Assembly (NCBI GenBank): GCA_900771805.1
Contig: CAAGPL010000067.1
Location: forward strand, 4,003-68,002
Origin: Bacilli bacterium
GTDB lineage: Bacteria > Bacillota_I > Bacilli_A > RF39 > UBA660
Length of the DNA: 64,000 nt
Reading direction: 5' to 3'
Both the position numbers and the translations under genes were made by a program. How positions within the stretch are numbered: position 1 is the first letter of the stretch; each line of letters opens with the position of its first letter. The notes under the pieces were generated by a model. The model was not told where the DNA came from, did no database searches, and worked only from the letters and a program-made list of their open reading frames with translations. Positions 45,040-45,665 of this stretch are shown here, piece after piece.

Positions 45040-45631
45040 AAAATAAAAAGATTGTACATAAGTACAATCAAAACCATGGAATCTTATATAGCAAACTCTG
45101 CGTCTTAGGTCAAGTTGGATTTCCCACTTTTTTCACCCTCTGTTACCATTAGGCCGTTCCCGTTTAAGAAAAAGCATGCCACCTTGCGATAAGCATTACT
45201 TGATTGCCACTTAGTACGCACTGCAATTCTATATAATCTACAGTCTAGGAAATTTCTTCAAATGAATAAATTGCTATTAGCACTTTTTTGCAAGAGAAAT
45301 TTCAAATAGCAATAGAAATTCATCTATGCCTAGATTAATTTCCTGATCTATTATCCCAATACCCTCACTCAAGGCAAGCTACACTACTCATAGCGCTAAC
45401 CACATAGTAGGTTTAATCTTAAGCCGTACAAAAAGCACGCACTTAAGTCTCCACGTATGATGGGTCTTTTTAAACTGTATGCCATTACAGAAAGCCCATG
45501 CAAACTCATATCCAGCACTCACCCCAATCTGGGCGAAAGAAGCAAGCACAAGACGTTTCACAGGTATGCTCTTTAACGAATTTTTAGGCCCGTCTTCATA
45601 GCATTTTCAAACTAGAATACTGCTCCACGGG
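45040..45631 (-). ncRNA. Candidate large structured non-coding RNA (about 590 nt), class unassigned
   Basis: The unit is ORF-free with about 39% G+C, against 18-27% in flanking rows (hand counts). It has its own promoter (45665-45637) and intrinsic terminator (45069-45040). The minus strand is G-rich. Many hairpins are present, along with a possible 5'/3' closing helix. Confidence 0.55.
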
Positions 45632-45636
45632 ATATA

Positions 45637-45665
45637 TTTATATCATATATTATGAAAAAAGTCAA
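45637..45665 (-). promoter_or_regulatory. Sigma-A type promoter TTGACT-17-TATAAA driving the candidate RNA
   Basis: The minus strand reads TTGACT(45665-60) tttttcataatatatga TATAAA(45642-37). The GC-rich segment starts about 7 nt downstream. Confidence 0.5.

Follow-up and report, generated by a model that had tools for sequence, protein, structure and literature searches.

[quoted passage not shown] By analogy with the genetics of Halalkalibacterium halodurans and with cryo-EM of Clostridium RNAs, a member of this family would be expected to fold and dimerise, to be bound by the membrane protein OapA, and to be tethered to, and possibly inserted through, the membrane. The resulting OLE ribonucleoprotein (RNP) may then help cells under stresses such as alcohols, cold, excess Mg2+, and poor carbon sources. 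In recent models based on cryo-EM, the P3 stems of OLE RNA span the bilayer (PMC12265935, PMC12286853, PMC11332333). An abundant transcript, RNP formation with OapA, and membrane localisation have been established in H. halodurans and in surrogate E. coli cells alone, and cell-wall and isoprenoid genes are among the typical neighbours of the ole gene (PMC12265935). Fernando & Breaker (2024) described two reduced forms of the RNA from uncultured Bacillota, "variant 1" (TANB77) and "variant 2" (RF39) (PMC11332333). Other RNAs of a similar size class, ROOL and GOLLD, are likewise ORF-free and structured, but differ from OLE RNA in architecture and gene context.

The window, that is, the whole stretch of 64,000 nucleotides that was analysed, was scanned with 4,227 Rfam families at their gathering thresholds. 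The sole match in the whole window was to OLE RNA (RF01071). It scored 347.3 bits (E = 2.2e-98), where the gathering threshold of this family is 50, and it spanned the model from position 1 to 616 of 616 without truncation. The other full-length loci that were scanned gave 312-398 bits. The conserved OLE blocks GCAGUAUUCUAGU, CCUAAAAAU, CGCCCAG, AAUGGCAU, CCUAGACUGU, AGUGCGUACUAAGUGGCAAUC, and GGGAAAUCC...GACCUAAG were present in the window copy. A score above the gathering threshold over the full model, the conserved blocks, a covarying architecture, an oapA gene on the 3′ side, and a Bacillota host place the segment in the OLE class. We therefore consider, with a probability of about 0.96, that this ORF-free, GC-rich segment is an ordinary full-length copy of OLE RNA, a family already described. 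As judged from the sequence, ole here encodes the OLE RNA of an uncultured low-GC Bacilli lineage. The copy shares its full-length model match, conserved blocks, and closing and P3-like helices with the OLE RNAs of H. halodurans, Clostridium acetobutylicum, and C. botulinum, and it also shares with the studied species a downstream oapA, a cell-wall/isoprenoid neighbourhood, and relatives within Bacillota. The earlier note had described the segment as a large structured RNA of unknown class and had named an Rfam scan as a check. The call of a structured noncoding RNA gene on the minus strand was retained after that scan, whereas the novelty was removed by the clean match to a known RNA, and a new RNA class was thus rejected. 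OLE, one of the two RNAs that had been named as size comparators, proved to be the identity.

The coordinates of the features are collected in Table 1. The minus strand of the 585-nt ole gene is rich in G and poor in C (A174 C87 G138 U186), as had been noticed previously. Measured over 200 nt at a time, the G+C content was 0.34-0.43 within the segment compared with about 0.15-0.25 in its flanks, and that of the whole window was 0.25. The earlier hand counts (210 of 540 over 45061-45600 and 50% at 45481-45540) were exact. It had also been claimed that the segment holds no ORF of 60 aa or more. Several short ORFs of 31-57 aa were found within 45040-45665, the longest being 57 aa, and one mechanical ORF (44421-45077, from ATG 45077) extends 78 nt into the 3′ end. 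For the next gene, the gene caller chose the proposed start at ATG 44999, and a GGAGG ribosome-binding site precedes this codon.

Table 1. Positions of the features of the ole locus, numbered on the forward strand of the window
Feature	Coordinates	Strand	Basis or remark
uppS (undecaprenyl diphosphate synthase)	41849..42559	−	Profile matches
IagA/BgsA-family glycosyltransferase (lipoteichoic-acid glycolipid anchor)	42798..43796	−	NF053513, 473.6 bits, above the cut-off of 460
oapA (OLE-associated protein A), 198 aa	43796..44392	−	Synteny, weak CNNM/DUF21 similarity, topology
orf192, conserved clade-specific helical protein, 192 aa	44421..44999	−	Between ole and oapA
ole intrinsic terminator	45040..45069	−	GATTGTAC-TTAT-GTACAATC, then T-run TTTTTATTTT
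ole gene (OLE RNA, RF01071)	45060..45644	−	Rfam covariance-model match
Folded core of OLE RNA, closing-helix 5′ strand to 3′ strand	45630-45074	−	557 nt
Closing helix, 3′ strand CCAUGG	45074..45079	−	Pairs with 45630-45625
Closing helix, 5′ strand CCGUGG	45625..45630	−	Pairs with 45079-45074
Long-range helix, 3′ strand CUAGACUG	45241..45248	−	Inside conserved block CCUAGACUGU; Rfam alignment and pair counts
Long-range helix, 5′ strand, CAGU (45622-45619) and CUAG (45615-45612)	45612..45622	−	Pairs with 45248-45241
ole promoter, sigma-A type	45637..45665	−	−35 TTGACT 45665-45660, 17-nt spacer, TG 45645-45644, −10 TATAAA 45642-45637
Inserted AbiE cassette, 1,565 bp counting one 9-bp repeat copy	45672..47236	−	Alignment with L003
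Direct repeat GAAAAGTAA, right-hand copy	45672..45680	−	6 nt upstream of the ole −35
AbiEii nucleotidyltransferase toxin, 273 aa	45737..46558	−	PF08843, E = 7.7e-16; PADLOC AbiEii, E = 1.1e-103, full length
AbiEi antitoxin/regulator, 185 aa by gene call	46558..47115	−	PADLOC AbiEi, E = 2e-65; match begins at ATG 47100
wecA/mraY-like glycosyltransferase family 4 gene	47237..48325	−	Native upstream neighbour of ole
Direct repeat GAAAAGTAA, left-hand copy	47237..47245	−	Contains the stop codon of the wecA-like gene

The proposed promoter of ole, TTGACT-17-TATAAA, was present, and the TG ahead of its −10 sequence makes it an extended −10 promoter. Our promoter scan passed over TATAAA, because its rule needs T at hexamer position 6. 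The pattern TTGAC-17-TGnTATAA(A/T) was kept in five close relatives (L018, L030, L123, L124, and L125), and the promoter was unchanged in L003, a strain without AbiE. The proposed intrinsic terminator was the sole terminator-like site in 44300-46700, where 0.3 would be expected by chance, and its GATTGTAC...GTACAATC stem was kept in the same five relatives. Analogous promoter and terminator elements were found in more distant Bacilli MAGs. Since the promoter and the terminator are conserved in relatives, the description of ole as a self-contained transcription unit is fair. The ole gene of H. halodurans lies in a long polycistronic transcript (PMC12265935), whereas that of the window is predicted to be monocistronic, with its own promoter and terminator. 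By analogy with the studied species, the OLE RNA of the window would be transcribed, processed, and localised to the membrane.

Base pairing was examined by a hand-made tally of pairs, and not by R-scape, on a MAFFT alignment of 110 OLE regions including that of the window. The closing helix CCGUGG/CCAUGG, which had been predicted from the window alone, was canonical in 83% of cells compared with 32-58% in slid controls. GC/AU/UA/CG swaps, that is, compensatory changes, were observed at its three outer pairs. This helix presumably corresponds to the published P1, the numbering being taken from text descriptions. P1 belongs to domain 2 of OLE RNA (PMC12265935). A long-range helix (45615-45612 with 45248-45245, plus CAGU/ACUG) was 99% canonical compared with 28-41% in slid controls, and it is unannotated in the Rfam consensus structure. 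We presume it to be P3/P3.1; it fits the text description of P3 (PMC12265935). Three local helices had been drawn in the earlier note. The arms AUGGG/CCCAU and CUGUA/UACAG of one of them (90% and 97% canonical, respectively) agreed with the Rfam consensus and showed compensatory changes, and CUUAAG..CGUGC/GUACG..CUUAAG also agreed with the consensus. The remaining one, the composite helix CUAGG/AUUGCUAUU/AAUAGCAAU/CCUAG, was rejected, since it is unconserved and clashes with consensus pairings. Its inner part AUUGCUAUU/AAUAGCAAU was 52% canonical against 41-48% in controls, and CUAGG/CCUAG was 64% canonical with one pair at 5%. The partner of the 3′ CCUAG is the 5′ UCUAG of the long-range helix, and not CUAGG. 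The minimum free energy was unexceptional (z = −1.42), 10 of 100 shuffled sequences folding equally well. The support for the structure is therefore comparative and not thermodynamic, and folding energy by itself would have given no reason to single out this RNA.

The window copy is 585 nt long, whereas the OLE consensus has 616 nt. One hairpin (model 198-241) is 14 nt shorter than in the consensus and one small hairpin (model 424-435) is absent; the rest is present. The region of model positions 505-550, which text descriptions suggest to be the P13/OapB region, is present at near full length. The loops reported as dimer contacts, namely the A-rich CCUAAAAAU, CGCCCAG, and UAAUGGCAU, are kept, all three in the commonest forms among the 110 OLE RNAs. 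On the other hand, the loop of the long stem is GGCA in the clade of the window instead of the usual palindromic GGCC, so that one reported dimer contact may be weakened. The stem below this altered loop still covaries (UCUA/UAGA versus CCUA/UAGG). The copy resembles variants 1 and 2 in being a somewhat reduced RNA and in belonging, like them, to an uncultured, low-GC, probably gut-associated member of Bacillota. It is not variant 2, because the hairpins that separate the CGUGGAG block from the long stem are kept; we take these hairpins as P7 and P8 by text-based numbering. Nor is it a typical variant 1, because the long stem and the region of model positions 505-550 are near full length.

The genes of the locus all lie on the minus strand in the order wecA/mraY-like gene, AbiEi, AbiEii, ole, orf192, oapA, IagA/BgsA glycosyltransferase gene, and uppS. 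Apart from AbiE and orf192, this neighbourhood is of the usual kind for ole, with oapA downstream and the wecA-like gene, iagA, and uppS around it. The wecA-like gene was directly upstream of OLE in L003, L018, L030, L125, L201, and L202. The window is part of a metagenome scaffold of 151 kb. Judged by synteny and protein identity, its nearest loci are L030, L123, L124, and P0033, which are labelled as uncultured Bacilli or Mollicutes MAGs. L018 carries the label Muribaculaceae, which is probably a binning error.

The core motif AGUGCGNACUAAGUGGNAAUC was used as a probe to collect 120 OLE loci from species-representative genomes. In 111 of these loci, the OLE motif was followed closely on its 3′ side by a gene for an OapA homologue (30-73% identity). 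The 198-aa protein of the window gave a sub-threshold match to PF01595 (CNNM/DUF21; E = 3.1e-5, 24.2 bits against a cut-off of 28.4), and OapA has been described as "weakly homologous" to the CNNM/DUF21 transmembrane domain (PMC11332333). A simple hydropathy scan, which is not a dedicated topology predictor, indicated four hydrophobic segments at residues ~24-55, 46-86, 119-142, and 144-170. The N-terminus, the central loop, and the C-terminus are K/R-rich, with K+R counts of 12 of 27, 7, and 8, respectively. This membrane protein is OapA. Its gene is the second one downstream of ole, and the intervening orf192 distinguishes the window from the studied OLE loci.

Homologues of the orf192 product numbered 42, with identity down to about 41%, and they share invariant motifs, among them the C-terminal PLERTINFY inside the conserved block DPLERTINFYMNK. 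The AF2 model had a mean pLDDT of 75 and contained three long helices. No family match was obtained in Pfam, NCBIfam, PADLOC, or PHROGs. A profile search against the PDB returned only coiled-coil noise (E ≥ 0.04), and Foldseek matched no PDB structure at E ≤ 0.001. Two syntenic states were found around this gene. The order wecA, OLE, orf192, oapA, iagA was seen in the window, L018, L030, L123, L125-127, L201, and L202. The order wecA, a 142-153-aa ORF, orf192, iagA, with neither OLE nor oapA, was seen in L128/L129, L199, and L200; the ORF in the ole slot of these relatives matched no Pfam family. The second state indicates that orf192 can persist without the OLE RNP, a finding that favours its assignment to the envelope gene cluster. 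The joint loss of ole and oapA, which are not adjacent in this clade, fits their known interdependence.

The shortened hairpin, the lost hairpin, the GGCA form of the P9-like loop, the displacement of oapA by orf192, and the relatives that lack both ole and oapA could also be read as signs of a true OLE homologue that is degenerating or has changed its role in a reduced-genome clade, and reduced OLE variants together with loss of OapB and OapC have been reported in uncultured gut Bacillota (PMC11332333). We regard this as improbable. The ole-bearing loci of the orf192 clade scored 347-390 bits with all major conserved blocks intact, the stem below the altered loop covaries, and the promoter, the terminator, and oapA are conserved. 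In addition, no difference was found across the OLE gene between the window and L003, whose Rfam match was identical to that of the window.

The AbiE genes upstream of ole were examined by alignment of the window with L003, a contig from another sample. Over the 1,245 nt that were compared on the side of the junction facing ole, the two showed only 2 mismatches. In L003, the −35 box of ole comes immediately after the stop codon of wecA, with no AbiE insert. The ole-bearing close relatives L018, L030, L123, L125-127, L201, and L202 were all without AbiE, and wecA runs straight into OLE in those with a complete upstream flank. The absence of AbiE from L003 and the close relatives indicates that the state of the window is an insertion. 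At the nucleotide level, the nearest AbiE cassettes were up to 88.5% similar, and this similarity was confined to the repeat-bounded insert. The cassette carries no recombinase, and no obvious terminal inverted repeats were seen at its printed ends. The pair matches the AbiEi and AbiEii profiles of type IV AbiE systems, to which MenAT is related, at full length. The two genes overlap at 46558 through the stop codon of AbiEi and the start codon of AbiEii, an arrangement typical of this bicistronic module. AbiEi accompanied AbiEii in 62 of 69 related AbiEii loci. Since the AbiEi and AbiEii pair is complete, the toxin has its own protein antitoxin, and the two genes form an independent type IV toxin-antitoxin/abortive-infection module.

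A functional coupling of this toxin to the RNA, as substrate, decoy, or RNA antitoxin, had been put forward earlier. DUF1814/MenT-type enzymes modify RNA 3′ ends, and the two genes are co-oriented neighbours, the AbiEii stop codon being at 45737 and the −35 of ole at 45665. In the scan of 44300-46700, the interval from the AbiEii stop codon to the ole promoter contained nothing resembling a terminator. AbiE transcripts could therefore extend into ole, and a transcriptional interaction of a trivial kind may exist. However, AbiEi is present at full length, ole retains its own conserved promoter, and neither the near-identical L003 nor any close relative has the 1,565-bp insertion that carries AbiE. 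Recurrence beside AbiE/DUF1814 genes, which had been named as a check, was examined in both directions. AbiEi/AbiEii was found in 0 of the 120 sampled OLE loci, and the OLE motif, oapA, orf192, and wecA were found in 0 of 69 metagenome AbiEii loci (354 kb). In type III systems, the antitoxin RNA is encoded by a tandem array of short repeats that is genetically inseparable from the toxin gene. Against such an antitoxin, 45060-45644 contained no tandem array, and the RNA and the toxin never co-occurred in the loci sampled elsewhere. We consider the coupling very improbable. AbiE has no detectable relation to the RNA and was inserted beside ole in one strain lineage only; the insertion is recent, unrelated, and mobile and left the ole promoter intact, and its adjacency to ole is accidental.

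The reading of the segment as the decayed remains of a protein-coding gene, or as some other remnant devoid of function, with incidental G+C content and helices, has a negligible probability, because the folding energy not significantly below that of shuffled sequences and the several short ORFs, which would suit a remnant, are set against a full-length covariance-model match of 347 bits, compensatory changes in several helices among 110 homologues, a conserved promoter and terminator, an OLE gene identical in L003, and an intact oapA downstream.

Standard Rfam annotation names the OLE copy of the window at once, and the identification carries little weight as a discovery. Its main use is as a correction, by which both the flag of an unknown RNA class and the speculative link between toxin and RNA are removed. 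OapB and OapC are reported to be largely missing from reduced-genome gut Bacillota (PMC11332333). We consider it unlikely, though conceivable, that orf192 serves the OLE RNP as a lineage-specific component or regulator, perhaps in place of these two proteins. If this were true, the sister lineages without ole and oapA would provide a natural knockout for comparison. Three minor points may be of use to OLE specialists: a conserved gene splits ole from oapA, ole and oapA are lost together while envelope-biosynthesis genes are kept, and a loop reported as a dimer contact is altered in this clade. Each of these is a small comparative datum on a still-mysterious RNA rather than a new system.

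The gene orf192, located between ole and oapA, is conserved in the Bacilli clade of the window and encodes a helical protein of 192 aa. No database matches were obtained for this protein family. Its invariant C-terminal motif, PLERTINFY, lies inside the conserved block DPLERTINFYMNK. orf192 was also retained in relatives that carry neither ole nor oapA. In three related lineages (L128, L199, and L200), the ole slot is occupied by an ORF of 142-153 aa that matches no Pfam family; oapA is also missing. These lineages have naturally lost OLE and OapA together within otherwise conserved synteny.

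In the window's clade, the long OLE stem, presumably P9, carries a loop that reads GGCA, whereas most OLE RNAs at large have at this position the palindromic GGCC, which has been reported as a kissing-loop dimer contact. The stem below the GGCA loop shows covariation (UCUA/UAGA versus CCUA/UAGG), indicating that the hairpin carrying this loop is maintained.

Several OLE-bearing contigs (L018, which is CAZBUA010000026.1, L020, L109, and L114) belong to MAGs labelled 'Muribaculaceae' (Bacteroidota). The full wecA-OLE-orf192-oapA-iagA-uppS synteny is common to L018 and Bacilli MAGs. These contigs are probably binning errors rather than evidence of OLE beyond Bacillota, and a caveat in PMC11332333 is in line with this reading.

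The 1,565-bp AbiE cassette is flanked by the 9-bp direct repeat GAAAAGTAA and contains no recombinase or transposase genes. Target-site duplication and microhomology are candidate mechanisms for its insertion. A YhcG/DUF1016-type nuclease-like gene adjoins large secreted proteins whose cadherin-like and dockerin domains are weak, a hint that this organism has a surface apparatus of a cellulosome-like or adhesive kind.

Coordinates of the features in the window and in loci with L handles
Feature	Location	Strand
orf192 family	window 44421-44999; members also in L018, L030, L123, L125-L129, L199-L202	minus (window)
ORF in ole slot	L128 5436-6000; L199 2498-2926; L200 471-932	
GGCA loop	window 45334-45323	minus
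Direct repeat	window 45672-45680 and 47237-47245	
YhcG/DUF1016-type gene and secreted proteins	window 51518-54041 and upstream (L001 1-2875)	
Type IV secretion or conjugation-like set	window 37102-41217 and beyond; L001 13176-20597; L125 9639-12582; L128 8952-12573	

Directly past uppS lies a set of type IV secretion or conjugation-like genes comprising TrbL_4 (864 aa), a TraC-like protein, a TraG-type P-loop ATPase, and a CHAP-domain protein; the T4SS_pilin match in L128 is weak. In the divergent relatives L125-L127 and L128, the beginning of this set, led by TrbL_4, is found in synteny. At least this part appears to belong to the conserved chromosome of the clade and not to a strain-specific mobile element.
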